Part shown: one piece after another, positions 3,904-61,346 of the stretch
How positions within the stretch are numbered: the first letter of the stretch is position 1
How the letters are laid out: the number at the start of each line of letters is the position of its first letter
NCBI GenBank assembly: GCA_003971905.1
Contig: RSEE01000020.1
Span: forward strand, 248,001 to 312,000
DNA from: Moniliella sp. 'wahieum'
Taxonomy: Eukaryota
Reading direction: 5' to 3'
Length of the DNA stretch: 64,000 bases
Translations under genes and position numbers: made by a program
The notes under the pieces: generated by a model
What the model saw: the letters and a program-made list of their open reading frames with translations, nothing else
Database searches by the model: none
What the model was told of the DNA's origin: nothing

Positions 3904-5105
3904 GAAGCTTGAAGCTTGAAGCTTGCTGAAGCTTGAAGCTAATAAGCTTGACGACGACTGTGAAATGGGTGTGACCGCGTGTATCCGGTAAACATGCGAT
4001 GCGTGTAGACCATGTGAGTTCTGAGGCCCCCCGGTCTCAGGACATCAAATCCTCAGAGGTGAGATCTGAATGATCTCTGAATCGATCTGAGGTGCCCTCT
4101 TGGGGCCTGTGACATGTGAGGCCTCAGCCTGAGGCCTGAGGCCCCCCTGAAGCTTGAAGCTTGAAGGCCGGGGAACGTGTGAACGTTGAACTTCAACGTT
4201 TTGAACTTCAACGCTGAAGAACGTGCGGAATGTTAACTCAGCGTCGAACGTGGGAAACGTGTAGCGAACGCGGTTTGAGCGCTCAGGCTGAGCGCGCTGA
4301 GCAGTGGAGGAGCAGCGGGCCAGCTAGGGCCAACTAGGAATACATGCGCGTGTTCTGGGAAAACGCGTGCACGCGGGCCTGCGTTACAAGTTACAGGTTG
4401 CACACTAAGCTTTCAGGCTCGCAGTTACCGGTTAAATTGTGCACTTGAATGAGAACTAGGAACTAGGAACTAGCAACTAACTACGACATCAAATTCAAAT
4501 TTCAACCCCGGAACAACTCTTCGACACAGTTCGGCAGCCGAAACAGATTTGCGGGATTCGGCATCATGCATCACATGCATCACGTGTCACATGTATCATA
4601 CATCATGCATCATGCACCATGCATCAGAGCTCAGCGTCATGCATCATGCATTACGGGGTGCGTGACGAAATGAGTGGTACGCATGACGTGCATGACGGGG
4701 CCAATTGGCCAACCCTATCGGCCCGAGCACCCCGGCACGGAGCAACTACTGAGCGCTCAAGCTGAGCACCCGAATACGGACGAAATGCGCGGCCATCGAG
4801 CGACATCATGCATCCGCTATCATGCATCCCATATCACCATGCAACATGCAGCGCGCAAGTTCACTCGTTTCCAATCCAACCGCCAAGTGCAGTGAGCGAG
4901 CCAGCTGGAACGGCCCGGAACGGCACCACCCGGCCGACGCGAACAACTGCAGCCCCGCCTTGTTGCCAGTCTGTCACAGCGTGCGTTATGCGTGGGCGAT
5001 GGACTTGTTCGTCGTCATTAACGTTTAACGTCATTAATCATTGATCATCGACATCGCGGGTAACCGGTAAACGGTAACCGGCAACCGTCGGCAACGGTAA
5101 CCGTG
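3904..5105. repeat. Patchwork of 7-bp-period quasi-palindromic microrepeats upstream of the Zn2Cys6 gene
   Basis: (gaagctt)n at 3904-3950 and 4148-4165; aggcct[c/g] at 4118-4143; aacgtt[g] at 4180-4215; (aactagg)n at 4454-4475; (catgcat)n at 4562-4652; accggt[a] at 5060-5105. Confidence 0.85.
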
Positions 5106-5197
5106 ACGGGACCATGCAACCGTCTGTTGTGGCCATCATCCCCACCATTCCCTTCGCATCGCCATCGCCATCGCCTCTCTCTCTTCTCTCATATACC

Positions 5198-8100
5198 ATG
5201 CCCGCTGGCCAGGGTCCCTCCAGCAACCCCTGGCGGCGCTCCACGGAACCAGGTTATCATCATGCCTCGTACCTGCCCCCGCCGTCCCACGCACCTGGCA
5301 CTTCCTACTCTGTGCATGGGCTCCCCACTATGGACACAACCGAACACACGCCCCCCACGCTTCTTCCTATACTACGCATGCCCCTGCTCATCTCCAGCAT
5401 CCGTATGTCATGGCGCCCGACCACCACCACCACCGGCAACCGGGCCATTGGGACCAGGGCATGTATCCCACGCCACCCACCCCGACCTACCTACCGCTCG
5501 TCCTACGCACCAGCCGCTAGTAGCCATCGCCATGCGCTTCCTCCAGCTGCCTCACTCTCTGCTTCTGCGTCGGTACCGGCTCCGCCAGTAGCTGCGTCGT
5601 CATCAACTCCTTCTGTATCCACCACACTCGTCCCTCCCTCCACGTCATCAGGTGCATTGCCCCGACGTGCTCTCTCGCCTCCAGTGCCTTTGGACCCCGC
5701 AAGCCAACCAGATTACTTCAGTCAACCAGTCGATCCAGCAAGGACCACACGTCCAGCTACACGCTCTCTAGATCAGCCACCACCCCAGGAACGGAAGGAG
5801 AGACGCAAACGACAGCGTGAGCCCGATATACCATCAGCCACCCCGGAGAGTAGTACGGCCAAAGACCCTCCGCGCAGCCGCCTGCAATTCAGCTGTGCGT
5901 ACCCTTTGCAACCGAGAGAGGGGATCAAGCTAACCGATGCAAAGGCACCGAGTGTCATCGCCGTAAGCAGAAATGCAACCGAGAGCTGCCATGCAACCAC
6001 TGCACGGCGCGCAAGGTGCCGGAGCTTTGCCGCTCGTTCCAGCCGGGTGATGATACTCAAGACCTGACTGCCCGGGTTGCTAAGCTCGAGAGTCTGTGCG
6101 AGTATCTTCCGTCTATGTCCGAAGTGTTGCAGCAGCTTTCGTCCAAGCAAGATAAAGCGGAGGTAGTCTTGCAGACCCTCCTCCGCAGTGCAACGAGGGC
6201 GTGGTCTCCGGAGCCGATGAGTCCCAAGTCGCTCCCTCGGACGTCCCTTCATTCCTCATCCGAGCAGGATGAGGATTTTCCGGTGAAGAACATGGACCAC
6301 AAGACTGGAAAGTATTCCTCTTCCGGGGCGATGGCGGTGCCACTCCACAAACTTCTGGACACCATTGGTGACGCGACCGGCGGGAAGAAAGGTTCCCTTG
6401 AACCTCTGGAGAAGACCCAAGAAGAGGGACGAGATGATGTGCTGGGCAGTCCTATGCATCGTCTCGTGGGTGACGACTCGGAAGGGGGAGGAGATAATAA
6501 TTATTGCTGCCTTACTTCGATTCGGTGTAACGGCGGAGGAGGTCAAGGCATTGCATGATTGCTTTCCGAGCGAACGCTTCGCCCGTCATCTGGTCCATTT
6601 CTTTTTCTATGAGGTCAACTGGATGCGTGTGCCTCTCCCTCAAAAGTACATCATGGCGCAGTGGGAGCCATTCTGGGACCAAGGCATCCTCACAATTAAC
6701 AACATTAATTCGGCCGCCCTGCTCCTTGTCACATGCGCTGTTTCCATCCTGTCCTGCCCTCTGAGCGAGCTAGACCGGTCGGAATTGCAGTCCTCCATTC
6801 ATTTGAGCAGAGGGGAAAAGTCGCGGATGTTGGCGGCACGAAAACTTAACTACACAGCTCTCCGGTTGCTCGTGTTATCGGATCTTCTGGGGCTGGAGGA
6901 CATGCCAAGAGTTATGGCCTTCATCCAGATTTCCCGTTTCACCTTTTTGGATGGCAAGTTAGACGAAGCTCACGCTATGCTGGCCCGCGGCGTGCGTACC
7001 TCCTTCGCTCTGGGACTGCATCGCGATGGAACCCGTCTCGGGTTCGATGCGGTCGACACGCGCTACGCAGGGTGGTCTGGGCTATACTCCGGACGTTTGA
7101 CAAGGCGATCGCTTTTATCATCGGTCGGCCATCCGCCATTATTGATGCCACTTGTGACACCAAGGCGCCTGATGATGTGGCATGGCAAGAAGAGTGGCCG
7201 TACTTAGCCGGTCAGCGTCCTAGCTTGTCCCCGGTGAGGTGGAACAACCAGCCCATTCCTCCACCCAGTGTCCACGTCCCACCTGCATGGCCTATGCCTC
7301 CCTCCTTAACAAACTCGGTGACTTCTACCACGAGATGATTGAGCTGAATCAGACGGTCGGACCCGAGATATCGATGCGGACCTTTGGGAATACAGTCCAT
7401 AAGATGGACACCAAAATGCTTTCATTCCGGGACTCTCTCCCGTCTTACTTTCAAGTCACCACAGCTACCTTCACGACCGAAACCAGTGTGTGGGAACAGC
7501 CGCTGGACAACGAGCTCCCCTTCTTGCCCACTCAACGCTTCGTCCTTCAAGCGGAAATCCATATCTTCCGCTTGCTCTGTATCGCACTTATCTCCTCCGC
7601 GTTCTCGCCCATCGCCCGAGTCGCATGTCCAAGCTCTATCCCTCCACACGGGCCAGTTGTGCCCGCATCGCTTTGGCCGATATTGCGAACAGGTCACACT
7701 TTATCCTTGCCCTTAATGCGGCCTTTGCACCTCGTCGACCACCTGTGATGTACAGCTTCCAATTGGCGCTTGTAAGCCCGTTCTACGCTCACATCACTGC
7801 CGCCATGGTACTGCTTCTGGAAGCGTCCCAGTCCACTGATGGAGTGTCCTTTGCTGATTCAAGCCTCTCCTCCGACCCACCCGCCCAAGGGGAGGAGGTT
7901 TCTGACTTTGATGTCTATCGATTGCTCTACCAACACTTGAACCGGTACGTGCGGCAGGCGGCCCCGCGGGGCTCACATGCTGCATCTGTCAGCTCGGGAT
8001 CCGTCTCGGCTGGCACCGAAGCGGATGGGCGAGAACGCGAGAATGAAGTACTCACTCTCTTCTTGCAAGGATCGCTCGACTGCGATCTACATACCTTCGC

Positions 8101-9639: not shown

Positions 9640-11058
9640 GGCCGGCAGGGATGCGGATGGAAGCCTGCCAGATGGGCAGCCGTCGGCCAGGTGGAGGCGC
9701 GGGCGAGCGGGGTAGAGGCCTCCTTCGGCCACGTCACACATCGGTGCAAATGAGGCACGGGGTCTGGCGCCGAACCCTACCTGTGGAGCACCACCTGATG
9801 TACCTATCAATATGCCTGTAGTGCTCGCCCAGCGCCGAGATACCGCCACAGACCCCTTCTCCTACACCACCGTCTGAACCCGCTGACATACACACTCGGC
9901 CGTCACTGCCACTACCGCTTCCGCTTCCCCCAATGTGCCCTCGTCCTTCCTCTGGACTTGGTGTGGATCTAATACGCCCGGCGCAGCGCCGCGCTGCTTG
10001 CACAAAAGGGGCTGTCCTCGTCCCTCTTCCCACGATATGCACTGTGGACTATGTGTGCTGGGAACTTAATCCACCCTGTTCCCCATCAAGGCGGTCTGAA
10101 AGGCCCTGCAGAAGCACCCCAATGTTGCGGACAAGGTGAACCATCCAATTGGATTCCAGGACTGAGCTGGAAAGATTCTCCCAACAGAACCTCAAACGCT
10201 CAGCGCTCACCACCTCCTGACTTGCCTGAGACAAGTATACATTCTCCCTGTTTCGCTCTCTACTGTGATTTGAGGCTGAGGCCTGAAGGTGTGCAGATGC
10301 CACGCCTATTAGAGTTGCGAACCAACAGGCTTGTGAAAGTGTCGACTATCGAATACCTGGAACAAACATTTGCGTTTCCTCCGTCTCACTAGGAGAAAGA
10401 CCAATACCTTCTTGTTGACTATTAGTCACCGTCACTAGTCACTAATAGAACCGCCACAGGGGACACACAGCTCCGAGTACTAAGTACTAAGTACTAAGCC
10501 CTGTCTTTAACTTTGGTTGATATGGCTGTGCATAAGTCTGAGACGCGAAAACACGGGCGCGTCTCCCACATATAGAGGAGAGTCGAGGAGCGAATGCGGC
10601 TTAGGCTGGCCCAGTAGCGAGTGCCAACTATTGTCTGGAGCGTCACATGCGTCACAGCCTCAAGCGAGAAGCACGCGCACAGGCTTCCCGCTTCTCCCCA
10701 GTTGCTAGTTACTATTTACACCGGCACTCATCACACGCATCTTGCGCCGTGCTGGGCGACGCGAATTTCTCCCAGCACAATCCATCCCTCGTCAGCGTCA
10801 CCGCCAACCCTCTCTTCCCGGTATGTATGAGCACACTATATAACAACGCCTATGACTGCCTATACACAAACGTCCACGACTCCGCCTGGGACAGTGGGTT
10901 TTGGATAAAAATCCCTAGGCCGAATGCTGTGACAGATCCTGCGCCTTGGGCACACAAAAATGGGATATTGCGATGTTCAAGCGCCTCCCTACTAAGGACT
11001 GTTGTTGATGGCATGCTCGGTGTTGCATCAATCCCACCAGTCCGTAAGCAAAAACGTA

Positions 11059-12649: not shown

Positions 12650-13450
12650 TTTTTTGGTCCAGCTCCGGCCGTTCTTCCTGTTAGGATGAAGTATTGATGT
12701 TCAGTCTGAGAGCGAAATGTTGAGACCAAAGATTCTACATGAAAAGGGGCTTCATAAAGCTTGGCCCGGGAGTGTGCACAGCCTTGTTTCGTTGGTGGGT
12801 ATATATGGCAGTGTGACCGTTTGACAGACAGACGAGCCACTGGCGGTGGTGTGGTTTTTGATTCTTCGGCGGTGCATGTGGATTATCCAAAACCATCGAT
12901 ACAACATCAGTCCCTACTGTCGGCGAACAGGCGGAGATGGCCGTGGTGACCTTAAGTGCAACAGGTGTCAGCATGTCAGGTCCTCAAACTGAAGCTCCTG
13001 TTGAAGAGAGGGAGCAAGAGAGGGAGTATATTGACGCAGGACGCGGGACGTGGTGTGTATCCGTTTGTTCATAACTGACGGTTACCGGTTTTACCCTCCA
13101 ACACATTATTGCATGATCGACATGACCATGAGATCCGACGCGAAGGTGAACTTCACCTCCACACTACTTTGGTATGATTATTCCTATAGAACTTGCTGGT
13201 GCTTTCCTAGTTTCCACATTTGGCGTCGGTTCCGCCAGGCAATGAATGATTCAATCATTGATCTGAACGATCTGATCTCTGATCGGACAATCGTCTTCGC
13301 GATGATGAGCTTCACGCTTGAAGCTGGAGGCCTTGAAGCTTGAAGCTTGAAGCTCGAGGAAGCCTGAGGCCCTGAGGTGACTACTAAGCAACTTTGGGAC
13401 TATACTAGTCCCGGAGAGCTTCAAAAAGGCTTCTTTATCGATTACTAGAA

Positions 13451-15982: not shown

Positions 15983-16218
15983 ACTCCTGATCTCATCGAC
16001 CATCGATCATTATCATGCATCACGCTCAACCGCTTCCTTACTCCGTTACACGTCACATGCATCATTTGTTTCATGTTTCATGCCGCATGTCACACGTCAC
16101 GTGTCACACAGCATACATCACGCATCATGTCAATCGCACGTTTGATTACGGGGATCTGAGATCCGAGATCGATCCGAGATCTCGCCTGGAGTCGTGCTGC
16201 GTGACGCGTGATGCATGA

Positions 16219-16945
16219 TGGCCCTCCAGCGTAGTGCAATTTTGCACTAACCCGCACCCAGGCCAAGTTTGGTGCGTTGCATGAGGCAGTGCGGGAGCCC
16301 ATTCTCCAGCTCCTACGCTCCATCCCCGACACCCACGTCCACAACGAACCTATGGTGGAGGAAGAGGATGGGACGAGGCGCGGACGGAAGGCACAGCGCA
16401 CCGATTACCGCGTGATGGGGCCCGGAGCACTGGGAGGAACCGGAATGGAGGTAGACCACACGCTGCGCGACACGGGATCGCAGGAGGCGCAGAGCGCGTA
16501 CCGGCGGGTGGTGCATGAGAGCACAGCGTCGCCTTTGGAACGCCGGGAGAAGGAACTGCTTCGGCTGCTTGAACAAGCAGAATGCGACAAGAACGCCAAG
16601 TACCAGGGACGCACTCAAGAACCGTTTTTCCCCCTGGTTTTGACGACGCGAGGATACTATGGCACCAAAACGGCGGGCAAGTTTTTGCGCATTGGAAGGA
16701 GTTGGCTACTAAGTCTCAGTGGAAATGGTTCCTCGCTCGTATGTCAACCACGTTCCTCCGTGTCCACACGCGCTTCCTAGGGTACGGGACCGGATGGCGA
16801 GAGCCGGAGGGTCCCGATATCCTGGCAATCCCCCTGGTTCCTTGACCTTAGTGGCGCTTCCAAACAACCCCCAAGATGAACGGTTCGGTTTAGACGTAGC
16901 GTTCCCCCTGTCCAGCCTTAAGCTCTGTCAATGGAATGCACACAC
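16219..16945 (+). mobile_element. 5'-truncated non-LTR retrotransposon, restriction-like endonuclease (RLE) C-terminus plus 3' UTR (CRE-clade-like)
   Basis: ORF 16277-16780: LHEAVR..VHNEP..RTDYRV..EVDHT..AECDKNAKY..PFFPLVLTTRG, a PD-(D/E)xK RLE motif order. C-terminus continues in a shifted frame (WKWFLARMSTTFLR). Three copies in the window share this 3' end with different 5' ends. Confidence 0.78.
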
Positions 16946-19111
16946 TATAGTGTTGGAGGGTGGTTATGCAATGGTCTAAGCCAACCAACACCAAATACAA
17001 CACTTATACCGTGAGGCACACTAAGCAACCAGTCACTACCGGGCCTGGCCTGCCTGGCCGCAGAAGGAAAGACAGAAGTCAGAAAATAGTGGAGCTCCTA
17101 GGTCTGAGGAGGGGCTAAGCACGCTGCCGTTGAAGGGACCATGGCGCCTTGCCCAGCAAACGCAAGACCACAGGCCACACTCTGTGACTTAACAATGAAC
17201 ACATCATGCCGATCACATGTGTCCTGCGTCCCTTGTCCACCGTGTCAGACACCAACATGCAACAAGGCCTGGGTGCAGTACAACATATTGGACCCGTATC
17301 ATATACTAGAGCTATCGGCGCTACTGACGCTCAGCAAAACTCCGAGCCACGAACAGACAACAAAGCGCTGAGCCATAGGGGCACAGGGACCACCCTGGAC
17401 CACCCTGGATCACCCCAGACTATATACTTTACATAGTGAGTGAGTCTTAGCGTTCAGGCGCTCAGTAAAAGGTTGAGCGTTGAGCTGTAGGCTAGGCTCA
17501 GGCCCTCAACAGGCGCTGAAGCGCTGAAGCTGGCTCAAGCGCTCAAGCTTCCAGCTTCAAGTCGGTCCGCCATCCGCATCCTATACGCCAGAGCACGGCC
17601 GCTCCCTTCAGGCCACAGGGCCTCATCCATGATCATCGACTATCCGCAACCACCGCGGCTTGATTCGCCATAGGCGCTGTGACCGTGACGTGTGATGCAT
17701 GATGCGCGACGCATGACATATGCCCCCAATGGCCCTTTCTGACGCGTAGTATATGGCCTAGGCGCTGGTGGCCCCGGTCTACGCCCATGGTGAGTGGACG
17801 AGGTCGAGTGGGGTATTGGGATCCAAGATCGATCTGAGAGGCAATCGAAATGATTAACGACCCCTGGAGGTTGGGGGGGGGGGGCTAGGCCTGAATCTCT
17901 GGCCTCACGCGGACCGTCACGTTCAGCCTTATAGGCTTTAGGCCCCTTAAGCCGTAGACCCCTTAGACGCTTAGGTCTTAGGCTCCTGGATCGTGAATTG
18001 CGTGGCAGGGGAGGGTAGCACAGGCGCGCGCAGTGGCAGGTTTAAGCACGTCCGCGTGTTGAGTGCATTGATTATTGAGCACAAGCACCGCATGTGTTGG
18101 GTACTGAGTTTTTCCTCGGTGGACCCGGGCGAGTACGAAGGACAGGGTGCAGCGGCGTGCGCGTCCCAGGGGAAACGTCACACGTCACACGTCACATGTC
18201 ACACGTCGTTGCATCACGTGTCACATGTCACATTGAATATTGAATGTCTAGCGTGATACGATACAAGCTGCCTGCGGCATATGTTGCTGCATGTGCCCAT
18301 CCATGCGTCCGGCGCTCACGCACCGCTAAAATACACACGCCCATTCGGCTCCCGACCCGCGACCCCTCCTGTTCCCCACCTCCCTCTGCCCTTTGATTGG
18401 CTCTTGCTCGTGGCCTGGCTTCCTGCTACCACCACCACCCTTCCCCGTCGCCCAATCTTTCGCAACCAGACGCCTCCCGTGCCTATATCCGAGCGCTAGT
18501 CTCGACTTCCGCCTCCGGCCCGAATTTCCAATTGCAGCCACCAGCAGCGGCACGCAAGAGTCTCCTCCTTTGCCTACGAGCTGCCGCGGCCTGTCCTTCT
18601 TTCGGTCCGTTGCCGGTTCCTTGGCGTTGCCCATATTGCACTTGCTCGCCGGCACTTGCACTTCCTCCCGCTCAGCGCTCACTCACTCGTCACGGCGCCC
18701 CTCTCCACGTCGCGCACTCCCTACTGTTGTTATTCGACTTCCAGGGCCCATTTCTGCTCAGCCTGAGCGCTCACCCTTTCTGCTCACGACACGCCGTATC
18801 TCCGTCGCGCCACCTAAACTGTGCGCTACCCGCGGTTACCACTACTAGTCGCCCAGTCCCATCGCCCTTTGCCGGCCATACTAAGTAAGGTTGCGACTGA
18901 GCCCACCTTGTTATCCCGTGGGCCCCACACACCTCACCCGCCTCTTCCCTGTGTCCGAATCAAACTATATCGTTGCTCATTCCATCTCGCGCCTGCAACC
19001 ACGCCCGCGCCCACATTTACGCACCTGACCACGACCACGACCACGTCCACGACTACACTCACGCCGACCCCACCTCACCCTTCTCGCCCCCTCTCCGTTG
19101 TTCTTTAAACC

Positions 19112-20385: not shown

Positions 20386-22285
20386 GCTGCTTCGCAGCTG
20401 ATCCATAGGATCGCGAGTGCTCCCAAGTCGCACTCTAGCAAGCTGTTGTAGTCGGGCCAAAATGGTTGAAAAGGCTGGAAGGCTTGGCGCTTCAACTGTG
20501 GGAAGCTTAAAACTGTGAGAGTACTTGGTAACAGACAGTAAGAACTCCGACCTAGTATACTCTCCACATCAGGTCTCAGTCCCGCAGCCTCAGAGGGACT
20601 CAGTGGGCCTCAGGCCTCAGGCCTCAGGCCCTTCAAAAGGCCATCTCAGATCTCAGGCCGCCATATGAGGCGTAATGCGTAAGGCCGGGCTTAAGGCTGG
20701 TAATGCTTTATGCCTTGAGGGCACTCAGTACTCAGTGGTCTTAGAGCTTAATACCCCAGTCCGTCCAGTTATTATTAATAGTCAACATTCATGTTGTGTG
20801 ATCTGCGCGATCGTCATAATTGGATCGATTATTGATATCGATTAAATGTTCGTGCAGAATCATATGATGGTCCAACACAACCAGGGGTTGCTCCTGCGGC
20901 CGCACAAATGGCGCTGATGAGCTCATGCATGCAGAGGGCCGCTCACGCGCGTATGGCTCTCTTTGGCAATTTCTCCATCCCATTATCGGCACGGGTGCGC
21001 TTCCCCATAGTTCAATGACGATGCGACTCGGAAGCCCTTCCAGAAGGACGACGCTTGCTGCGCCCAACACACCCCTTCCAGACTCAAAGGCTCTAAACCA
21101 AAAGGGATATATGATCAACCGACATTGGACGTGCCCCTGAAGGACACGGAGTTTGAAAGATTGACGTTCATGACTATTAGTCCAAGGTTACTAGTTACTA
21201 CTAATAGTTGCTAGTTACTAGCTAGTTCTGCATAGTATAGCTTTAGTTCACTAGCTTCTCACTAGTCACTTGACTCCTAGCTTCCGAGAATATATTCCCT
21301 CAAGTACTTAGTGACTCTGCCTGGGTGCTCAACCAGCGCCTTCGAGCCCCTGCCTTTTCTTTGGGGAGGAGGAGGGGCAGGGTGTATGGGTGTGTGTGGA
21401 ATCGATAATCGATAAACAGAAGCGCAAAAGTGAGCTATGGGTAACCGGTAATAGTAACCTGTAACGCGTAACAGTATACTATAACGCACGCACGCGTTGC
21501 CATGATCTCGTACGATCGTAGCCGCTGCCGCAGGGGATGATCATGTTTCAATCCCAGGCATAGTCTTGGAGCTTGAAGCTAGTGGAGCTTGAAGTTGACG
21601 TTCGGCTCACCTTTGCAGTCGTTGAGCTTCTCGAAAACGTATATAGTACGTTGATGAGCTCAAGGAACTCAACGTCATTAATCATTGTCGCAGTGTCACA
21701 TGTCAACCTTGAAGCTTGAAGCTTTTCAAGCTTGAACGTCTTCAACGTTGAACGTTGAACGTACGTCTCTACTTGTATTCATGGCGTTCGTTCTTCGGAT
21801 GCATCAGATCTCACAGGTCGGCAAGTACTCCGTACATATCTTCGATGAAAGTTGCCACCTCATTTACTCTCCTCGCTCTCACGAGTACCACATACCTCAG
21901 CCGCCAGAATCTCTCTCTCTCTGCCGAGGCTCAATTTCGGCGAGATGAAAGCATTGCCAAATCAAGGTACTAGGACTTGCAGTCAGATTCCAGAGCCACT
22001 CCACTGTGAGCTCGGCTACTCAATGCACTTTGTTGGATTCAACCTTCGAGATCCCCTGGGGCGTCCAAGTAAATCCACCGTGCGCCTCGCCCGTCTTTAT
22101 ACCTTCCCCCATCCTGGTTCGCGCAGCAGCCACGACAAGGATACAAAAAAGTGCACATTCGCCAACCACAGTGAATAGGCTGGCCTGGGGTGAGGAGACA
22201 AGAGGGGCACGAGCCAGCCCATCCTGACTCGCCCTCGTGATAGAGGGAGATAAGTTCGATAAGTGGGCTTGAAACAGGTACACGA

Positions 22286-23461: not shown

Positions 23462-26400
23462 GGCGGGGAGGGTGGGGAGAGGGAAGCGGTGGGGGACGCG
23501 TTGATGAGGACGGGGATGAGGATGGGGACGGGGATGGGGATAGAGATGGGGTCTGCGGATGGGTTGCTAGTTGGGGTCGAGATTCGAGATAGGCTTTGCT
23601 GCAGCTACGCTCCCGCGAGCGCCCGCACATACTGGTTGGGCTGGCACGGGCCTACTCGTGCGTGCGCTGTGTCCGGCTGGGCGTTGTCGTGCTGCCTACT
23701 GCGTGCTGCCCTGTGCGGACTCAGACTGAGTACTCAGACTACGCTCTCAGACTAGTGCTCAGACCGAGTCGGCAGTTCAAGTGAAGCTTCAAGTGAACGC
23801 GGACGTTGATCGAGGACAGAGCACTGGCGGCTCGGGCGCTGCTATCGGCTGGCATTCGAACCACGCCGCCCAATCGATAGCGTGGCCACTGCCCCCACGC
23901 AGCCCGCCACCGCCCGGCCACCCCGCCCAGACAGGGGCCGTGCGCGTCTTGCCACCGCGCCGCCGCAGCATTGCAGCAGCCCAGCCGACGATCATGCATC
24001 ATGCATCATCTCATCCATCATATATCCCTCGGCTGCTAACCCTGCCCACAGCACACTGCCCCCGTTCTGCGTCGTTTTAGCCGCCTGGTGCGTTGCGCTT
24101 ATACTGGTTGCAGCTCCGGCCTGCTCAGGGCCTGGCTGCCCACCCAGTCAGCACCCAGTACCCAGCCTTTTCTAGCCTGGGAATCTCAGGGCGGGTTGGA
24201 AGCAGACTCACATGCGTGGAGCAGTCATCGATGTCATCCCTGCGCGATCGAACAGAGTGCTTAGTCAGCGCCCTCTCTCGCACTGACCGGTTGAACGATT
24301 GAACGATTGAACGATTGAACAGTCCACGGTAGAACGCTGGCTGAACCTCAGGAGTTAATAGCCTGACTAGTTACATTAACTGCAGATGTTCTCGCGTTGG
24401 TCTGTGCCGTCCGCGTCGAACACATGCCAGGCATAACTCTCTCCCGGCCTCAAGTCGGCGGTCAAGGCGGGCAGGAATAGAACCCGCGATTCCTTCGTTC
24501 GCCTGTGTAGGACGGAAGAGGGGTCAGCTCGGCAGTTGCCAGCAGCGTCCGCTCTCCACACTACACATCAATCGTCTTTTGGCTTAAGCGAAGACGGCGT
24601 CGCGATTTCTCTTCATTTTCTCCCATCATTTCCTCACCTGCACTCTGCTCCAGTACGTGCATTACCCACTCTCTGGCCGGCAACCTCGTTTCTAGTGGGA
24701 ACGAGAGGATCCTCGCCAGTGCTTCCTTTCCCGACTCGGCCACCGATGCAGGGGGGGGGGGGGGGGGTCTGGAGAGAGACATCGTACTCGGCCTGATGGT
24801 GCTGTGAGAAACTACAAATGAAGTCCATGGAGTCCCGTAGGGCAACCTTCATTCCCGTACCCCAATATGTTTCACCGCGCCCACTCGCCTGCCCTTCTTG
24901 AGCCACTGTGCACCCATCATTCTCTCTCGTTCTATTAATGGCGGCAGGTGATGACATCGTAAATGTATACATATACCTCCTGTTACCCCCTGTCACTTCA
25001 TGACACCACCCCGAAAGCAACGGAGGAGATTCCATGACTAATAGGGAAGGCAGATCAAGCTGCGAAGAAGACCGAACCTGCACTTTCTCCTCCCCAGCTC
25101 ACCCTGTGTTGGAGCAGGCCGAATCACCCGCAGCTAAGGATGTTCCGGTGTCCACTCCGATATCACCTCATCGTTCGGCTCTTCCCGTCTGGCCAGGGCA
25201 GAGTATCAGAACCCCTCAGTGAAACGATTGGCTTCTCAGCCCCTACCAACCCTTGCCCCTGCCTCGCCTTCGACCTTCATCCAGACCCGTCTTCGTCCCA
25301 ACATGCCTGTCCTGGTCCCCTTATTTCGAACTTTGCAAGTCCATCCGATTCGTCTCGCGGTATTCAATACTAGCACGAGGACAATCTTTCGTCCACTTAT
25401 TGTGTCTCAAGCTCCACCACCAAACATCCTGGTCAGACCGAACAATAAACTCGATGTAAATGGTATCCTCTTCCGTCACCTCTTCCTATCGAACGGGTGT
25501 CAATCCGACATTCTGCTTATGCATTGGCCCAAGGAGACGGCCAACGCGGCGCTCACACATTCCAGAGTGCTTCTACCAGGGGCGCTTGCCACATTGAGGC
25601 AGCAGCGCAAGCCCCCAGTGCAACTAGGCCGATGACGAAACACAGGTCCGAGATCGGGCTTAATGGCCCTCTGACCGCTGCATTGTTTGCCAGTAGGGCT
25701 GCCTCGAAGAGGCATGTGCTATACCACTGCAAAAGCGCCGGCCCTCTTCCCCTCTGCCCCAGCTACCTCTTTCTCGGACGCAGTCCTACCGTGGTTCTAC
25801 ATGGTATCAACCTCATGTCTCCAGACCACGCGACACCACCGTTTTTGCCGCCGTTGGTGCCCTGTGTGACAAGTACGACAAGGAGCGTGAGGGAAGAGCG
25901 ACTCAAGGAGTCATCCTTGACTGTGGTTGGCAAAATGCCACTTTTGAGGACGAGAGGTGAGGCTGTCCCAGCATCTCTGTGCGCCTTACACTCGGATGTG
26001 ATGGGTCTTTGTTTGCCCCCCCCCCACCTGCTGCTCTGCTTTTCACAACCGAAGAAGCACAGGATGTGGAAGAGCACGAGGGGAGGATGGCCAGGGCGGT
26101 GTGTGATGTGAGCCTCGCGGCAATTTTCTGCAGGAGTGGATGCCTACCAGAACGTCTGCCTCAACGGGGACATGAAAATCTACATGGCCTCTCCTTCCCC
26201 GGAAGGGTCTCTAGCCTACCCCTTGGGAACGTCCCTGAGCACGCTCTATCCTAGCTGATCAATTTTCGTCCCCCTCCTAGCGACCGCCTTAAGTCCAAGG
26301 GCCACCTGTAGATGCCAAGATCAGTCGCCCAATTCCTCTCACTTATTGGGCTTTGATGTGTTTGTACGACGATTCGGATACCAAGGAGATGATCATCTCC

Positions 26401-35853: not shown

Positions 35854-37068
35854 TGTCTCGTGTTGTTGTTGGCTCGATCGTCACGTGCTGGCGGGCGCAA
35901 TTGGCATGTGGCGTCACGTGCCACACGGGAGCGTGGAAGCTCAACTCAAGCGCGCTCAGCCTGAGCCGCTCACGCACTCAACGTTACGCGTTAACTGCAA
36001 CCGCGCGTGACGCGTGAGGCGTGACGATAGAATGTTGATCGTCCTGTTGAACAAATGCACGGTGGTTCAGCCTGGGCGCTCAGTCTCAGCGGAATATGCG
36101 CTTGCGGAAACAACCACTGCAGAGGCGGGCGTCCTGTTGTGGTCAATATCAATGAGTTAAGCAACCGCGGCCCGCTAACACGCCGGTCTCGTTCTGGCAG
36201 GTTCGGCAACAGCTCGGCTTCATTGGACCCAACGGTGGATCGGTTCCACCTGCCTATACCACTTATAGATGGCTGGCCAGCACGTGTCTGGTACTTTTCC
36301 TTCCCTCCGTTCCTGTGTACCACAAGCAAGGGGATGAGATGCGGTGTTATTGTCTAGCCGGTACACACCATAAATGCAGCCTGTCCCAGAGACTCGTTTC
36401 TCGGAAAAGCCAAGCGGTCTACTTCCTTGGGATGCATCTCGACTCAGCTAGTTTCTTCTTGGACGGATCTTGGCAGGAGAAACATTTCGACCCTGTTGAC
36501 GTCAATGATCTCCCCAATCTCCACTAACATTTAACCTCCTCCGTCGAAGGCATGTCTCTCCCACCCCTTCGGTCTCAACTCGACCATGACGTTGTATTCC
36601 ATGGACTCGCAGTCCACCATTGGCATGATATGGAGCAAAACTGCTCTGTATTTTACCGCCCTTGTTTCTCTCTATGTCCTCCGTATAGTCGGTCTCGTCA
36701 AAGTCGCCTTATAGCAAGCTGTACTAGTACGAACCTATTGTATTAGCTGTCAATTGCAGATTACTGTTAAGACGAACTAACCCCAAATCAAGGCGAAAAA
36801 TATGGGCGACGGACAAAAGAGAGGAAGTGCAAACCCCACCGTCAAACGCTCTACTGCTCAACGAATAACTTCCGTGATCCACCATGATGCATGATGGTGT
36901 CCTCCTACATTTCCTGGGGGCTTGAGCCTTGAGCTCTGAAATACCCCAATTGGATAGTATAGCAGTCGCTCACGCATACATCTGCCCAGCAATGAAACAC
37001 AAGACTAAAAGAGCCGTGACGCGTGACGGTCCACTCGCAGTGGGGGCTCTCCGAGTGGCAAAAAACTT

Positions 37069-44387: not shown

Positions 44388-45964
44388 GGCGGCGACGGAG
44401 AGGGGGACGGGGAGGGGGGCGGGGACAGAGCCGGAGCCGGAGACGAGACAGCGGCAGCAACGGGCGTGGCGTGGCGGAGCGTCGGCGTCTCCGCGGGCGA
44501 GGAGGAGGGCGGGGGGAGGCAGGGCGAGGCTGGGCGGGCACGTGGCGGTGGTGGTGAGGCGTGGCGATGGGATGCTTCTGCCGGCGCTGCGCTTGATGCT
44601 GGTGCTGCTAGCCGCCTGCTGCCGCCTGCCGCGCCCTGCCGCACCTCGCTTCCCGCCAGCCAGGCGCGCCGCACGCACAGCAGCGCAGTGTCCGCGGAGT
44701 GGCACCCGCTGCGCTGCCCTCGCACGGCGCCAGTCGCCTGCGCCGCGCGCTGCGCTGCAGGGAAGGCGCGTCGCTGCTGTCGCGGGCGGGCTGATCAGCA
44801 GGCACAGCCCCTGTGCTGCCCCTTGGCCCTGACGCAGACGTGGAACCTGGAAGCTGGGTAGGGTTGTGCCTGTTTCCGGCCGCCAGCGCAGCCCAGCGCA
44901 GGCCACGAGCCAACCCTGCCCAGCCAACCCTGCCCACCGGCAACCCCAGATCATCCATTTCGATCAGCGTTCCATATCCAATGTGCCCTGGTCCTGAATC
45001 GGTGTGTTGTGCAATGTTCAAACTAGTCACGGTCACTAGCACTAGTCACCAGTCACCGGTCACCGCTACTAGTCAAGCTAGTCACCGGGCATTACCTAAC
45101 TGTGATAGTCACCTACTAGTTACTGTGGCATGTGCCCATCATGGTCCCTTGACCAAGGCAACCTGACCGGTGCCCCCCTGCCCAACCTGCCCAACCTCGC
45201 GCCTGGTCGCATACCTCCGTTCTTCCAACCCTGTAGTCATCTCCCCGTGACATTGACATGTGACAGATCGCCCAGGGTCATCCAGTCCCAGGGTCGCCAC
45301 CTGTCATGCATGTCACCACTGTGGCGGAGCTCAGCTGCACTGCAGACCCTCCTTGGTAGCCACCTCCCGCTCCTCGGTCATGCAACGGGGACTTCCACTG
45401 TGGAGCCTGTGGGTGAAGCACATTTAGGACAGTAGTAGCGTAAGCAATCGATTGCGGTCGCAGAAGGGCGTGGGGGTAGGAAGCAGGGGGAGCTGTAGGT
45501 AAAGGCTATGAGTCGCTGGCTTACGTGCTAAGCGCTAATAGCCACGTGCAAAACACGTCAACAATGTTCCGAGTCGGATCATCGAACATCGATTAACGCA
45601 AGTGCTCCACCAGGCTCCACCCTGTGCCCCACCACACGTCTTCCAAGTTTCAAGTCAGTCACCGTCACAGCAGTTGATTAGCTTGATGAGCATTATATCT
45701 CTCTTCGGCATCCACATCTGGATCCAAATTCACAGCTCCCGGCGCCGATGCCCAACTATTACGACTTCAACATTAGTACCTGTATGACTCTCTGCACCAT
45801 AATCGCTATAAAATGCAAAGCGAATCAAAAGTTCCCTTGATGTGTGGTCGTCTCCACAGTGTAGATCATTCGGTCTCTCTATCGAGAAGGTGTCTCAATT
45901 CCGGATACAGATATTGGCTCTATTCTAGCAGTAATAGGGTGCACGGCATGTGACAGTAACATAC

Positions 45965-48800: not shown

Positions 48801-48955
48801 GACCACCGGGCCTACGGCTCGGTCAGCTGGGGCTTCGCCCCAGCTTGGTACTCGGTCGCCACCTTAGCCACCGTTCTCCCGGCTCACCATCGCTACCGGA
48901 GCCAACGTTCCACGCTGGAACCCTTCCACGCTGGAAAGTCGAAATAATATCACCG
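48801..48955 (+). mobile_element. Double-hairpin head, second copy
   Basis: Similar to 13451-13590 over ~140 bp (gaccaccgggcctacggctcggtcagctggggcttcgccccagcttggt...cgccaccttagccaccgtt...ttccacgctgga). Confidence 0.75.
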
Positions 48956-50774: not shown

Positions 50775-52517
50775 TGAGATCTGAGATCTGACATCTGATT
50801 GCATAGGGAGGATCTCAGATCTCACAGATCTCGCAGGAGACTTGATCTAATAGACAAATTTTAGGGGGGCAAAAAACATGTGGCTGCTTCTTCAGAGTGA
50901 AAAACTACTAGTCACTAATCACGCGAGAGTCACACATAGAACGAAGTGCCAGCCACCTATGGCGCACAGTAGGTTTTAGATGCGGTACAATATATACACT
51001 GCCATGGTACGTGGTACATGAGAAACATGGAGGATCGATGATCGATGGTACATGGTACCACAGCGACTAGTGACTGTTTAAGTGAACGTTATAAACGAAC
51101 GCTCGTTGCGAGGTTCAGGCGGAGCCAGCGCTCAGACGCTCAGGCTGGACGCGCCGAACGTTGAACGTTGGACCCTGCAGGTACCAAGAACTGAGTTGAA
51201 CGTGTTGAACCGTTGAACCCTGTTGAACATTAAACGTTTAAACGTTAAACGTTGAGCCACTACAAGGCCCAAGGCACGGGCGCCACATTTGCTTTCAAGG
51301 GGGGGAATGATTACCATGGCATGCATGATGCGTTATGTGATGCATGACTGACGGAAATGGCCGTGGGGTGATCTATGTGATCTGGGATGATGCTACCGCC
51401 GCATAGCGGAAGTGACGCGTGACGGGCAAATATCGGGATTTAGCCGGGTGTTGTCCCGGCCTGGCAGAACGGCAGTCCGCATATTCAGCGAACCAACCTG
51501 CCAAGCCCGATGGCCACGGATCTTGTGTTTCACGGCAAATCGCGGTCGTTCGCTAGAACGTTAGGCGTTAGGCGCCGGGAAGAAAGTGTCACATGTCACA
51601 TGCCGCCAATACACACCACAGGCGCCAAACGGTGCTCCCTCACGGGCCTGAGCCTCAGGCCTCAGGTGAGGCCTCAGGGGGGCTTCTGCAAGGAATATGG
51701 ATTGGAGAGGAACGAGCTATAGCAGGCTGTATTAATAGCCGTGGGGGCTGTCTGTACTTATAGCCCCGAATAGGCCCTCTAGAGCTGTTTCCCCCCACAC
51801 TGCCTTCAAGCTTCAAGTATCATGCATCATGTTTCATGCCACATTATGCACATGAGTATGATGCGTGACAGCGGTTATACTATAGCGGTTCGCTACCGAA
51901 CCATCAGGCATATATTGAGCACTCCTGGGCTTTATGTGAAAGGCCACAGAGAAAAGAGCCGGTTGTATGGATGGCATCAGGAGGGTATTGCATTAATTAG
52001 CACCCAACATGAGCATGAACGTTGAACGACGTTGAACTATATGTCGCCGCGAGAGGCTAGGGAATATTCCAGCCCTTGCCAGCAGGAAAGCGGAAGGAAT
52101 GCGCCGAAAGAACCCGCGCGCTCGGGCTCCCAACCGGCGCTACTAGCTACTACTTCAGGGTGGCACCATACTTGTTGTAACATGCAACCATCTAAAGCCA
52201 TGCACCACGGGCATGTGTGGGTTGCCAGACTTTTTTCGGGCAAGTTTATATTTGTTGAAAAACAGGCGCATCAACAGGGTGCAGCTAGCAAATCACCAGG
52301 TCACTGATCACCGACCACTAGTCACTGGATCACCATAGCCACTCGTACGTGTCCTGATCACCATTTGGACTCGTACTCACCGGTCAATCTCACGTCGACT
52401 GGTTTACTGCTTGTGACAGGTGAGGTACCGGGTACTGAGTGTACTGAGTATAGGTACTCTGAGATCTGACTGACTGAGTACTGGTGTACATGTCGCTTCT
52501 GTCACATGTCACATGTG
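50775..52517. repeat. Heptamer quasi-palindrome arrays upstream of the amino-acid permease
   Basis: agatct[g/c] at 50775-50831; atcgat[g] at ~51032-51046; aacgtt[g/a/t] at 51154-51256; aggcct[c/g] at 51645-51677; agtact[g] at 52430-52482; acatgt[c] at 52499-52517. Confidence 0.85.
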
Positions 52518-54788: not shown

Positions 54789-55299
54789 TCCGTTTGTCGT
54801 TTCTTCTTCTATACCCTTTCCGCACACTGGCCAAAGCCTTCACTTTTACGGTTTGATTGTAATGATGCGTCGAGATGTCATTTTGACTTTGACTTTGACA
54901 CTTGATACTCTATCTGTGCTGGGCTGAATTGATTAGCACTACGTATAGCAAAATACACTGACCGCCCAGCGTTTCTTTTTCTCTACTGCCATAACCTTTC
55001 CAAATGCTGTGTACGGCAGCGACATTATAAGAAGCGTTCTCCCCCAGAAGCTCTCTATCCGGCGTAGTGCTGACAACTCGCGCTCACCCCGTAGGAGGCC
55101 AATGGTATTGTCAGGAGGTCACGCCGCCCAGGAGACCATTCAACTCTCGCCATTAGTTTCGCTATGTTGGCACATACGGCGAATAAGGAAAGCCGTCGAC
55201 ATGTGAGTCATAACATGAATGAACCATCATGTGTTTCAAGGATACTCTCCTGGGGTAGTTCCTTTTCCAGCGTTCATGCATGCTTCCCCTCTCAAAAAG

Positions 55300-56240: not shown

Positions 56241-56970
56241 TGCCGATGTGGTTGAGTAGTTGGATATTTAAGAATACTACGTTAGCTTCAAGCTCGCTTG
56301 AAGTTGAATGTGTGGGGATTCCGTACAGACCTCTCCACAGTGGTTACGGCGGACGTTGTTGGACATAGTGATGGACGCACTCGGCCGACCAAGCGAACAT
56401 CGGTTGACATGCTGCCGAGTCCTTAGCGCATCGAGCAGTATATTCCCTCTTACATAAAAGGCGCGTGGAAGATAGTTTCTTCAGCACCCTACTCTCATGA
56501 GACCAGAAGTCCGGATAGTCCTTGAGGGTAATGCAATCACAGGTGGTGGTGGTGGGTAGTGTAAGCCAACCAGCAACGTCTACAGAGGAACATCAAGAAC
56601 CCACCCTCAGGCCTCACGCGCCACGAGGCAAGAGCTGCCGAGGAAAGTAAGAAGCTCAACTCCAACTCGGGCAGCTGGCAAAGGCATAAATGAAGGGTAC
56701 GGACATATTGTTTTGGTAGTGGCGATGCAGGCAATCGCTCGTTGTACGGCAAAATAAGCATGCCCGCGTCCAGCCAAAGGCGTACAGTTGCTCTAGCATT
56801 CTCGAGTGCATAGCGTAGATCGAGAAGTGCTGATGTCCCGCATGCGTGCAATGCGTAGCAGGGGATGAACATGAGCAATGAAGCAATATGGGAAGCAGGC
56901 GTCAACATCGAGCAGCAGTGAGCGAAAGTTGGCTTACAAAAATGTTCCAAGAGCCATAGGCCGAAGACGT

Positions 56971-57488: not shown

Positions 57489-57666
57489 GGCGACGAACGG
57501 CTTGTGTACAGCGAGCTATGAGGGACTTGGACCTGGTGTCACAAGCATTGGATGCGACAATCGTCCCGCGAAGTGTCGGTGAAATAGGGTTGAATAGGAA
57601 CATAGGCGCAATAAATATATGGCGCCTCATGTCGATCATTGATCACTAGATCACTTGACCACTGGT

Positions 57667-57705
57667 CATGCATCATGCATCATGCATCATGCATCATGCA
57701 TCATG
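57667..57705. repeat. Perfect (catgcat)5 array upstream of RPP1
   Basis: catgcatcatgcatcatgcatcatgcatcatgcatcatg, about 180 bp upstream of the RPP1 ATG. Confidence 0.9.
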
Positions 57706-58507: not shown

Positions 58508-60722
58508 TCAAAGCTTACTACGCGCGAGACTTGACGACGGCATCTCTGGAATGAAGCCACTGGCAGCGCTGGCCAAGGGCTGCTTCCCCTCTGCGCTAGT
58601 CGAAATCATTGAGAGAGGGACAGGGTAATCCTCGTCGAGCTTGCCCACTTGAGAACGAAGCACATTCTTCTGTACTTTGCCTGTGGGCACTTTGGGGAGG
58701 GAGGGAACCAACTCCACCCAGGCCGGCACAGCAAAGTGACTCATGCGTGAGCGACACCAGTCCCGTAGGTCCTTAGTCAAAGCCAGACGGAATTCAAGAC
58801 TGGAGTTGAGTTCCTTGCAGACGGCGGCCAAGCGACTGTCGTGGCTGTCCGCATCCACATCGGGCACATCAGTCGGCTGAAGTGTGAGCAGGGGGGACCA
58901 TTCGGCTTGCCCATGGCGTGCATTTTGCCCAAGTAGCTCCGTAGGCCCGAGGGCGAAAGCACGACACATGCATGGCCTGCTTCCCCCCAGCGAGCATGGG
59001 GCCGCGCCACCAGGGCGCATTCCCGCACCAGTTCATGAGCTGAAAGTTCCTGCTCGACCATGAGTGAGGAGACATTCTCTCCCCCAGGAATGATAATATC
59101 TTTGGACCGGTCCCGAATCACAATCCCGCCGTTGGGCAAGCGGACGGCCAAATCGCCACTGCACAAGTACCCGTCTTTGGTGCATTTGGCCGTAGCCACG
59201 GGGTCGTTAAAGTACTCGCGCATAACAATGTTGCCCCGCATCACCACTTCACCCACTTCTTCTCCATTCAGCTCGACGTCTTCGGCTGGTTCTTTCACTT
59301 TGCTCCAGTCGCCATCAAAGTCTTTGGGGATGCGGAAGACGCGAACCTCGTCTGCAGTCAAAAATCCATGACCTTGTTGGGCCATGAGTCGAGACCGTTC
59401 GTCCAATGAGAGGTCCTTCCATGTTTCCCCCATTGCTCCTCCCTTCTCGTCATAGCGCCGAGTAAAGGGGCCGTAGGTTTCTGTCATCCCATAGATGGCA
59501 ACCGGAAGAAAGCCCAATGTCTCCAACCGGCCGATGAGAGCCGAAGTGGGCGCTGATCCCGCCACTCCGAGCCGAATAAAGGGGCGAGTGGGAGTTCGAA
59601 CACTGCGTGCTTTGGGGTGGTACACGACGCCTACTTGAACCGTAGGGGCTCCACATGAATGGGTCACCCCACCGTGGAGGTAGGCGTCCCAAATTGCATC
59701 ATAGTCCACTCGCCGGATCGTATAGCTGCACGAGAGTGCTGCTGTTGTGGCCCAAGGGAAGGTCCAGCCACTGCAGTGAAACGCGGGTAGGATCCACAGA
59801 TACACACTGTTGTGATCAAGGCGTAACTCGAATGCTGGTAACATTAACAATAGTTAATCAGCATTCACATACGAAAGAAAAAGGGGGAGAGGGGATCAGT
59901 ATGTTGCCTCCACAACGAAAATGCAAGGGCAACAAAACGGTACACACCATTGGCTAGAGCTGCAAGGTAGGAGCCCCGAACAGTGGTCACGACTCCCTTA
60001 GGGCGACCCGTAGTACCCGAGGTGTAGCAGAGGGAACTGGGGGTGTCTTCAGACGGGGGCAAAGAGAATACTTCCCAGTCCCGCGGCGCTGTGGCCGGGT
60101 TTCTTCCTTGCATGCGGGCAACTTCGGCAGACTTTTCGTTTGCCTGCTGCCACTGGAGCCAACCTTTGTCGAGAAACTGCTCGTAGGGATCGGCATCAAT
60201 ACCGTTGATACCGCCGCTATCGTGGCTAACGACGACGGTGATTCCGCGTTGGGCATGCTTGGGCTCGATCAGATGGGCAAACATGTGATCCACGATAATC
60301 ACGCGTGCGCCGCTATGCTCGAGGACATACGAGATTTCCGCGGGTGTGTTACGAATGTTGATCGGCTGTACGATGCCTCCTGCAGCCAGAACGGCATGAT
60401 GGGCTTCGAGAATCATGGGGCAATTGGGCGCGACGATAGCAACGGGGGCCCCCTGTTGGAAAGAGGGATCCGTACGGAGTGCGTGGGCAAAGCTGAGGCA
60501 ACGGGCGGCCCATTGGCCGTAATTGAAGCCGTAGTTGCGCTCAGGGTGGACAATGGCTTGCGCAGTGGGTGCAACGAGGGCGGCACGAAGCAGGAAGGAG
60601 ACGGGCGTCAGAGGTGTGTGGTTCATTGGTGTTCCAGCGGGGACGGCAAGTCGAAGGATAAAGGGGCGCCCCTCGGGCGGCTGGGACGAGCGGGGCGGGG
60701 TGTAGGAGACTGGCAACGACAT
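58508..60722 (-). CDS. AMP-binding acyl-CoA synthetase (acyl-activating enzyme) with C-terminal PTS1 (-SKL)
   Basis: PLTPVSFLLRAA, LCYTSGTTGRPKGV, YLWILPAFHCSGW, YGMTETYGP, SGDLAV, RDRSKDIII.GGENVSS, LPKVPTGKVQKNVLR...ARSKL-stop. Intron ~59838-59945. Confidence 0.92.
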
Positions 60723-61346
60723 GGGGGGGGTTAGGGCAATGCAGACTGGTGGTGGCGAGGAGTAGAGGATATAAATATGAGAGGGATGAAGCAGCCGAGG
60801 TGCCACCACAGTCCATGTCCAGTAGAGCGCGGAGACCGGATCTGTTCTTTCCGGTTGCGGCGGAGTGCTGTGTCAAAAGTATAAGGGGTGCCCCAATCAA
60901 ATGTCATAGGAGCAGGAGGTGTATACGCATCAATCTCGCATCAATATGTCAGTCGCGGAGAGATCATTAATTATTCCCAACCCACTAATGGGCTGCAATA
61001 TGCATCCACTGCCGTCCCGCCCGCTTACGAGTGCTGCCGAGCGCCGGTGGGCGGCCCGCGTGATGCATGATGCATGATGCATGATGGGGCACTGCTATTG
61101 TTACGCTTCGCTGCTAGACGCACTAGCCCGGCTGTGCGGTTCGAAACAATCCTCAAAGCAAAAGCAGTCCTTCCCCGCCCCCCCGCACCCAACACTGAAT
61201 AATGTGGAGCCCCGCAATTCAATCCAGAAGGCTCCACACGCAAGGTTGCCATTACATTTACGCAACGAATTACGTGGACCCTACACAGCCAGTCGCGGCC
61301 AAGCCGGATGAGAAATCACCGGCCACCCCCGATGTACACGGAGGTG

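Follow-up and report, generated by a model that had tools for sequence, protein, structure and literature searches.

Hairpin-forming transposons are known to process both flanks of the site that they leave, and their footprints are variable. The closest anatomy to the repeats described here is that of P-nucleotide footprints, which are left at V(D)J coding joints and by excision of hAT, Transib and MULE elements. As described in PMC1131882, Transib and RAG give 5-bp duplications and hAT elements 8-bp duplications; Transib families are described there as integrating at cCASTGg with a preference for GC-rich sites, and as of 2005 that account places them, among fungi, in soybean rust only. Excision of MULE elements is reported as similar to that of hAT, Transib and V(D)J (PMC5499845), and Kat1, a domesticated hAT transposase, is reported to make hairpin-capped breaks that are handled by the cell in a yeast (PMC4763223). 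The subject of this work is a family of short repeats with a period of 7 nt, anchored on the trinucleotide TNA (N is any base), in a 64,000-nucleotide stretch of Moniliella sp. 'wahieum' DNA (assembly GCA_003971905.1, contig RSEE01000020.1, positions 248,001 to 312,000), referred to below as the window.

The basic object in the window is an asymmetric 12-mer, written here as D-P-D, in which D is a 5-nt direct repeat T-N-A-w-x and P is x'w', the reverse complement of the last two bases of D. The anatomy of this object is one-sided and precise, the requirement for T and A is strict, and the object is excluded from coding DNA. One rule covers about 70 loci in 64 kb. We infer, tentatively and with somewhat less than even confidence, that the repeats are scars of a lineage-specific, TNA-anchored insertion process of hairpin type and not binding sites.

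Results

Expected counts were taken from a third-order Markov model of the window (15 simulations), and periods 4 to 11 were tabulated. The 10-mer formed by TNA, a 4-bp palindrome and the same TNA, which has period 7, was observed 98 times against 2.6 expected (38-fold). Palindromic TNA units of other periods were counted 21 times against 8.3 (period 6), 9 against 1.7 (period 8) and 2 against 0.3 (period 9), while non-palindromic TNA units of period 7 were counted 81 times against 31.7. The remaining periods and classes reached at most 2.7-fold, and nothing besides the period-7 palindromic TNA class exceeded about 7-fold. When the middle base is restricted to G or C (TSA), 93 such 10-mers are found against 4.0 expected. 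All 16 four-base palindromes are represented. Hexamer palindromes of the form A....T are in excess (346 against 218), and those of the forms C....G, G....C and T....A do not exceed expectation. The same 10-mer occurs 19 times in 418,488 bp of control sequence, and its density in the window is 34 times higher. The controls, used for composition only, are metagenome loci, mostly eukaryote-like, which came from a scan of metagenome contigs with the open reading frame (ORF) for the catalytic subunit of cAMP-dependent protein kinase (PKA) of the window (80 loci).

An initial annotation of this DNA had described arrays of constant geometry and varying sequence, with period 7 and A....T palindromic cores. 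The arrays are real, and the comparison with other periods, palindrome types and controls leaves this class as the one outlier in the window. The core palindrome is present at 29 of the 30 coordinates that were named (within -15 to +45 nt), the AGTACT core given at 52430 being missed; two full cores exactly 7 nt apart are found at just 12 of the 30. The alternation of C and G spacers within an array, which was also described, exists but is a minority feature, with 13 spacer-flipped TSA 10-mers (2.2 expected) against 80 direct ones, and the spacer can be any base.

The anchor is defined by pairs of trinucleotides separated by 7 nt: TGA-TGA occurs 65 times against 13 expected, TCA-TCA 78 against 15, TAA-TAA 18 against 3 and TTA-TTA 18 against 3. 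Since each of the four is enriched 5-6 fold, the rule is T-N-A, and the excess of G and C at the central position is due to base composition, which is 56% G+C for the window. Pairs of TGA followed by TCA at this distance are unenriched overall (16 against 16). A reading of TNA as a stop codon (TGA or TAA, on either strand) was rejected because TAG and CTA are unenriched. Among the 81 non-palindromic TNA units, classes with a single broken pair, such as CACG and CGTG, are in excess, and by their appearance the non-palindromic units look like decay products.

None of the 98 10-mers lies within Pfam-supported coding ORFs (11,908 bp), and 55 of 70 merged loci fall in the part of the window, 34% of it, where long ORFs are absent, in keeping with the intergenic location first proposed. 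Exact runs containing the motif total 1,198 bp, or 1.87% of the window. Such a restriction to intergenic DNA, together with the recurrence of identical cores across several intergenic regions, would be expected if selection maintained the arrays in promoters as homotypic clusters of palindromic sites for transcription factors. Some neighbouring clusters also favour this explanation, since they appear similar to known site types: TAAC-N-G runs (5059-5110 and 21440-21490), ACGCGT and TGACGT. However, all 16 four-base palindromes are used in one frame, and no single factor or family would read all of them; it follows that the palindrome is generated or demanded by the geometry and not by one sequence-specific reader. 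The 12-mer is asymmetric, whereas sites of dimers are symmetric. Comparison of the gene map with the clusters places arrays on the 5' and 3' sides of genes alike, and the decay products resemble the outcome of free point mutation. A regulatory origin is therefore considered quite improbable.

Runs of period 7 in which TAAC or GTTAC stays constant and the other bases vary (GGTAACC, GTAACGC, GTTACTA) were also noted at 5059-5110, 21440-21490 and 21187-21227. They are in part D-P-D with TAA or TTA anchors, and we take them to resemble Myb- or RFX-type site clusters.

The 98 10-mers collapse into 85 loci, with one palindrome between TNAs in 76, two in 7, three in 1 and five in 1. At the 76 single loci the exact period-7 run measures 10 nt in 6 cases, 11 in 5, 12 in 31, 13 in 9, 14 in 13, 15 in 3, 16 in 4, 17 in 3, 19 in 1 and 22 in 1, and most of the 'arrays' amount to just 1.7 copies. 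A run of 12 nt is the 10-mer extended by 2 nt on one side in 28 of 31 cases and by one base on each side in 3 (binomial p=0.004). With D fixed as TNAwx and the inverted spacer set to 0, 1, 2, 3 or 4 nt, the numbers of positions are 5, 8, 110, 3 and 1 against 3.6, 1.4, 0.5, 0.0 and 0.0 expected. The action is thus placed exactly 2 bp outside the TNA, as the initial annotation had it. The 418 kb of controls hold 4 D-P-D positions, compared with 110 in the window.

The anchor is equally strict if it is not imposed. Among 43 isolated 12-mers consisting of any 5-mer X, the reverse complement of its last two bases and X again, T and A stand at positions 1 and 3 in 29, and every other pattern is found at most 3 times. 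The bases w and x can be any base, without GC preference. The flanks of the 29 isolated 12-mers show no further conservation, and the period is continued at chance level (left 5/29, right 9/29); the isolated 12-mers are therefore not decayed 14-mers. Strand use is balanced, with 49 on the forward and 45 on the reverse strand. At 16200-16220 two 12-mers on opposite strands have one TGA in common, which indicates that either side of the TNA is usable. The mirror product, with the inverted bases beside the TN end, was found in 3 independent cases in the window, which is the chance level, and the two-sided class, with inverted bases on both flanks, in 1 case. The two longest arrays measure exactly 12+7k nt and begin with TNA.

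These lengths bear on the role of slippage. It could be supposed that slippage makes and expands 7-nt repeats and that self-complementary units are retained since the slipped loops fold and escape repair. A general excess of period 7 agrees with this, the exact tandem runs of periods 5, 6, 7, 8 and 9 numbering 3, 16, 33, 9 and 5; Tandem Repeats Finder gave 137 rows, of which 45 have period 7 (counted from the listing). Exact period-7 runs that reach 14 nt or more number 61. In 36 of them a 6-bp palindrome plus one base makes up the unit, where the chance share of heptamers fitting this description is 2.7%; by the same kind of count 35 of the 36 are of the form A....T, and the spacer is G or C in 30. 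The palindrome rule is absent from the other 25. Odd-centred quasi-palindromes are enriched (60 against 18 for a spacer of 1 and arms of at least 6), and the longest array, of 40 nt, exceeds what independent hits would predict. In addition, variation in copy number was seen in one array, which is without TNA: (GCTTGGT)n stands at about 2, 2+ and 4+ units in the three paralogous copies of the dispersed repeat R2 (see below), so this genome does undergo slippage of 7-nt units. On the other hand, tandem duplication of 7 nt, whether through slippage or through a staggered cut of 7 bp, requires a run of at least 14 nt and cannot result in a 12-mer. Slippage would have at least two full head-to-tail copies at birth, while the exact run is shorter than 14 nt at 51 of the 76 single loci, with a mode of 12 nt and flanks at chance; in this respect the earlier view that ordinary slippage alone does not yield the form is upheld. 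Hairpin stability leaves unexplained both the strict T.A and the one-sidedness (28 against 3), and palindromic units of periods 5, 6, 8 and 9 lack a comparable enrichment. Slippage of hairpin-favoured microsatellites as the source of the pattern is judged unlikely.

The initial annotation had itself proposed a symmetric 7-bp target, nnTNAnn, duplicated as 7 bp, with hairpins formed on both flanks as in hAT/RAG-type excision. The TNA is itself symmetric and both its sides are used, symmetric 14-mers do occur at 5 loci, and the non-palindromic TNA units of period 7 are enriched 2.6-fold. Symmetric 5-bp (w'TNAw) and 7-bp targets predict the 1+1 and 2+2 forms, however, and among the 76 single loci these are seen at 3 and at 5, compared with 28 for the one-sided 12-mer. 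A 7-bp duplication does not force complementarity of the flanks, the mirror product that two hairpins predict is at chance, and no matching element was found in the window. In this literal form the model is very improbable. The general cut-and-hairpin idea is partly supported, because the two flanking bases recur at the junction as an inverted copy without a loop, which fits a hairpin that was sealed and reopened to give P nucleotides.

Several other candidates were rejected. A PIF/Harbinger-like 3-bp duplication combined with a Tc1-like stagger (TNA plus two bases per transposon end) predicts 10-nt objects with arbitrary flanks, whereas here 12 nt is the commonest length and the filler corresponds to the flank. 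A filler derived from fixed transposon ends would be one per element family, whereas here the flank sets the filler. The junction could be obtained on paper from neither TOP2 (4-nt stagger) nor TOP1 chemistry. Finally, an assembly or sequencing artefact is hardly credible: the objects measure 12-40 nt, well under the read length, they are sequence-specific and absent from coding DNA, their decay by point mutation is visible, and in our judgement no error mode is known that writes TNA-anchored inverted dinucleotides.

Proposed origin of the repeats

A TNA-anchored insertion could proceed as follows. At an intergenic T-N-A, 7 bases would be inserted on one side. The two bases beside the TNA (w x) would be copied in inverted form (x'w') and followed by a direct copy of T-N-A-w-x, giving D-P-D. 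The two inverted bases would be P nucleotides, arising when a DNA end sealed as a hairpin is opened again 2 nt from the tip; the five direct bases could come from a filled-in 5-nt staggered break or from a 5-bp target duplication. The new TNA would again be a substrate on either side, and arrays of the form D(PD)n with period 7 and the palindrome A-wxx'w'-T would result automatically. Point mutation, occasional longer inverted copies (the spacer flips) and some ordinary 7-nt slippage would later reshape them. Reopening of a hairpin is favoured because the inverted junction has no loop, and polymerase fold-back cannot make such a junction. To our knowledge, a hairpin-sealed end reopened 2 nt off the tip is the sole well-known chemistry for a loop-less inverted junction of 2 nt.

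As to the agent, it is possible, but doubtful, that an endogenous T-N-A cutter, either a domesticated hairpin-forming transposase or another T-specific cutter, writes the 7-nt scar (2 inverted and 5 direct bases) in open intergenic DNA, re-uses the new TNA and so builds a measurable share of the promoters. By analogy with known systems we favour as candidates a nuclease derived from a DDE-type transposase or an asymmetric mobile element that duplicates 5 bp, either of them being positioned by TNA.

A simple hit model can be compared with the counts. The 80 inserted units, divided by 2 x 1,339 TNA sides in ORF-free DNA, correspond to a hit rate of 3% for each side. Once a site has been hit it offers three equivalent sides, and about 9% of loci should then receive a second hit; at 6 of 70 loci two or more units are present. 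The repeated visits postulated earlier thus fit arrays of up to three units as independent hits. The 5-unit array is far longer than the model predicts, and slippage must therefore contribute to it.

This excess length is one of several points that weigh against a TNA-anchored insertion. The 25 exact runs of period 7 outside the palindrome and TNA rule indicate a sequence-blind component of 7-nt slippage, as does the varying copy number of the non-TNA array in R2. The window yielded neither a nuclease nor an element whose ends match; inverted termini bordered by 3-bp direct repeats, as a transposon with TNA-flanked inverted ends would show, were scanned for in these 64 kb with hits of chance size only, and no transposase family was detected by Pfam among the 150 of 169 ORFs of at least 110 aa that were scanned. 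Compared with known hairpin-forming transposons, only one flank is inverted here and the inverted length is nearly always 2, and the target T-N-A-w-x is asymmetric whereas dimeric transposases have symmetric targets. We could not derive D-P-D from any single known reaction without an extra 5-nt duplication step. The evidence base is one 64-kb window.

No description of the D-P-D pattern was found in the literature (open-access papers and bioRxiv). The rule creates every kind of 6-bp palindrome in promoters and downstream regions. Insertion signatures anchored to a sequence are rare, and deletion signatures such as that of TOP1 at TNT took years to explain. If an endogenous cutter is at work, it would represent a new sequence-anchored insertion signature and a new route to palindromic promoter words. 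If the rule is genome-wide, it would offer a testable handle on a break-and-repair activity of a basidiomycete and on the birth of short tandem repeats, a step that slippage models leave open, and would be a possible source of new palindromic regulatory words. The diagnostic form TNAwx-x'w'-TNAwx can be counted in any genome, which would give a map of the lineages that have the process.

Loci and genomic context

The principal repeat loci and the genes of the window are listed in Table 1. The partial gene map is based on a Pfam scan of 150 of the 169 stop-to-stop ORFs of at least 110 aa; four tRNA genes are also present.

Table 1. Positions of period-7 repeat loci and of Pfam-supported genes in the window
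Feature	Positions	Strand	Remarks
(TGA-AGCT)n array	3904..3940	.	3-nt interruption
AGGCCT-core array	4117..4143	.	Single G-to-C spacer flip; TGAGGCCTCA = perfect 10-bp palindrome
D(PD)2	4148..4166	+	D=TGAAG, P=CT; exact 19 nt = 12+7
Lone 12-mer D-P-D	4180..4191	+	TGAAC-GT-TGAAC
Degenerate ATGCAT-core cluster	4561..4651	.	TCA phase of 7 nt, inner four bases drifting
AGTACT core, A spacer	10476..10498	.	(TAA-GTAC)n; example of W spacer
(TGA-AGCT)3 array	13332..13354	.	
Two D-P-D 12-mers back to back	16200..16220	.	One common TGA; CGCG left (-), TGCA right (+)
TCA-phased cluster	18175..18245	.	(ACGTCAC)3, then ACATGT and AATATT cores
(GGCC-TCA)3 array	20606..20656	.	Followed by (GATC-TCA)
Mixed cluster	21694..21762	.	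ACATGT 12-mer, AAGCTT array, CTTGAAC/CTTCAAC hybrid units, AACGTT array
(TCA-TGCA)2 array	23991..24009	.	Upstream of PKA gene
ACGCGT core	36004..36017	.	Further copy 37015-37028
ACCGGT core	45044..45065	.	Adjoins non-palindromic TCA-CCAG unit
AGATCT arrays	50775..50824	.	Both spacer orientations, TGA then TCA
Promoter-side cluster	51033..51666	.	Upstream of amino-acid permease; ATCGAT, AACGTT, ATGCAT, ACGCGT, ACATGT and AGGCCT cores
(TCA-CATG)2 array	52500..52516	.	
D(PD)5, longest array	57666..57705	+	Exact; D=TCATG, P=CA; 40 nt = 12+28
D(PD)3	61061..61086	+	D=TGATG, P=CA; 26 nt = 12+14
Kinase	868-2715	+	Pfam
Zn2Cys6	5854-6555	+	Pfam
Cyclin	19301-19927	+	Pfam
PKA (catalytic subunit)	22039-23349	-	Pfam and named matches
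Efg1	31626-32264	-	Pfam
SIR2	33897-35807	-	Pfam
RhoGAP/RasGEF	38059-40787	-	Pfam
Amino-acid permease	53161-54853	+	Pfam
AMP-binding	58511-60872	-	Pfam

The two longest arrays have a common ATGCAT core and are inverted across the AMP-binding gene, 3.36 kb apart. This arrangement may be accidental or may point to a larger structure.

The DNA of the window is nuclear and comes from a basidiomycete of the Ustilaginomycotina. The top named matches of the PKA ORF are from Ustilago, Tilletia, Thecaphora and Parajaminaea, with 70-82% identity across about half of the query. All named relatives of the AMP-binding enzyme ORF are at or below 60% identity, Violaceomyces being the closest and the Ustilaginales reaching 52-56%; the lineage therefore has no close representative among the named matches. 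The nearest of the 80 PKA metagenome loci has 70% protein identity on a 2-kb contig, and none of the 80 is a close relative of the window. Only one metagenome run, from food, shares 6% of the sampled words of the window; its matches at 80% likeness are scattered, fall mainly on the dispersed repeat R1 and do not cover the arrays usably.

The repeat R1, of about 400 bp, is found at 14391-14752 (+), 16532-16949 (-) and 50261-50668 (+), with a partial copy at 13716-13753. Two of the copies, which are 92% alike, make up an inverted pair, and the 1.8 kb that separate them are full of heptad arrays; no link between R1 and the arrays was found. The R1 copies have a conserved reading frame in common (…REKELLRLLEQAE.DKN.KYQ…PLVLTTRGYY.TK…), which has no match among Pfam families or named Atlas clusters. 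The contigs of the sole matching metagenome run sit mainly on the R1 arms. The repeat R2 is located at 13444-13576, 48794-48919 and 61352-61408. Twice it is found on the upstream side of an R1 copy, at a distance of about 1-1.5 kb, so both repeats may belong to a single larger element. A third repeat, R3, occurs at 15656-15751 and 56502-56597 (83% alike over 98 bp). A tandem duplication with a period of 96 bp is present at 20235-20288 and 20331-20385 (98% alike), and one metagenome contig spans it with 96 bases fewer, which represents the single-copy form.

Intergenic homopolymer runs of G comprise 17 bases at 24751-24767 and 12 bases at 17873-17884. The stretch 46000-48000 is low in G+C (48%), with a strong skew of A over T (AT skew 0.27), and is framed by a weak inverted repeat at 45956-46095 and 48117-48261 (71-74% alike). 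It contains no ORF of at least 110 aa between 45163 and 47929, and possibly represents an old mobile element or else a long non-coding region.

Comparison with known systems

The P-nucleotide footprints have two features in common with D-P-D: a short loop-less inverted copy of the terminal bases of the flank at the junction, and a direct duplication of fixed length around the junction, which here is 5 nt (T-N-A-w-x). The P-nucleotide footprints, however, may affect either flank and are heterogeneous, whereas in the window the mirror class stays at the chance level and the two-sided class is a single case. The scars described here also iterate into arrays, unlike such footprints, and no element was found in the window.

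The individual families can be compared in the same way. The hAT target consensus is nTnnnnAn, which would give units of the form T....A and not A....T. The direct repeat in D-P-D is 5 nt and not the 8 bp described for hAT, and a repeat length of 8 showed no comparable excess tied to the D-P-D form in the window. The duplication length described for Transib does fit, but the target here is asymmetric, with TNA at one end, and lacks the described GC preference. The excision footprint of Tc1/mariner elements consists of TA, bases of the transposon end and TA, forming a 7-bp quasi-palindrome. D-P-D is similar in having a short symmetric target duplicated around a short palindromic filler, the Tc1/mariner footprint having a central ambiguous base. 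In that case the filler comes from the fixed ends of the transposon, while here the local flank (w x) dictates it, hence all 16 palindromes.

Outside the transposons, a formal analogue is the 'ab initio' synthesis of short repeated palindromes in vitro by a nickase and a polymerase (PMC10520511). As described, its tandem units likewise combine a constant recognition site with a self-complementary part, and arise there through cycles of cutting, fold-back and extension; the reported reaction runs in vitro with bacterial enzymes and is not known from a fungal nucleus. In the TOP1 indel signature at TNT, the enzyme is reported to cut 3' of T twice on one strand, with deletions of 2-5 bp in short repeats (PMC8866115). 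T-N-A might be seen as the opposite-strand counterpart of this cutting rule, which is put forward as a lead only: the TOP1 products described are deletions and not +7 insertions, and we were unable to obtain a junction at arbitrary bases from that chemistry. The intergenic heptamer repeats of bacteria, such as cyanobacterial STRR and the Xanthomonas GGGNATC repeats (PMC4692102), have the same period of 7, an intergenic location, often hairpin-forming pairs and an unexplained origin. These are prokaryotic repeats with one fixed word per family and many copies per array, whereas the repeats of the window follow the rule of a TNA anchor and a variable palindrome.

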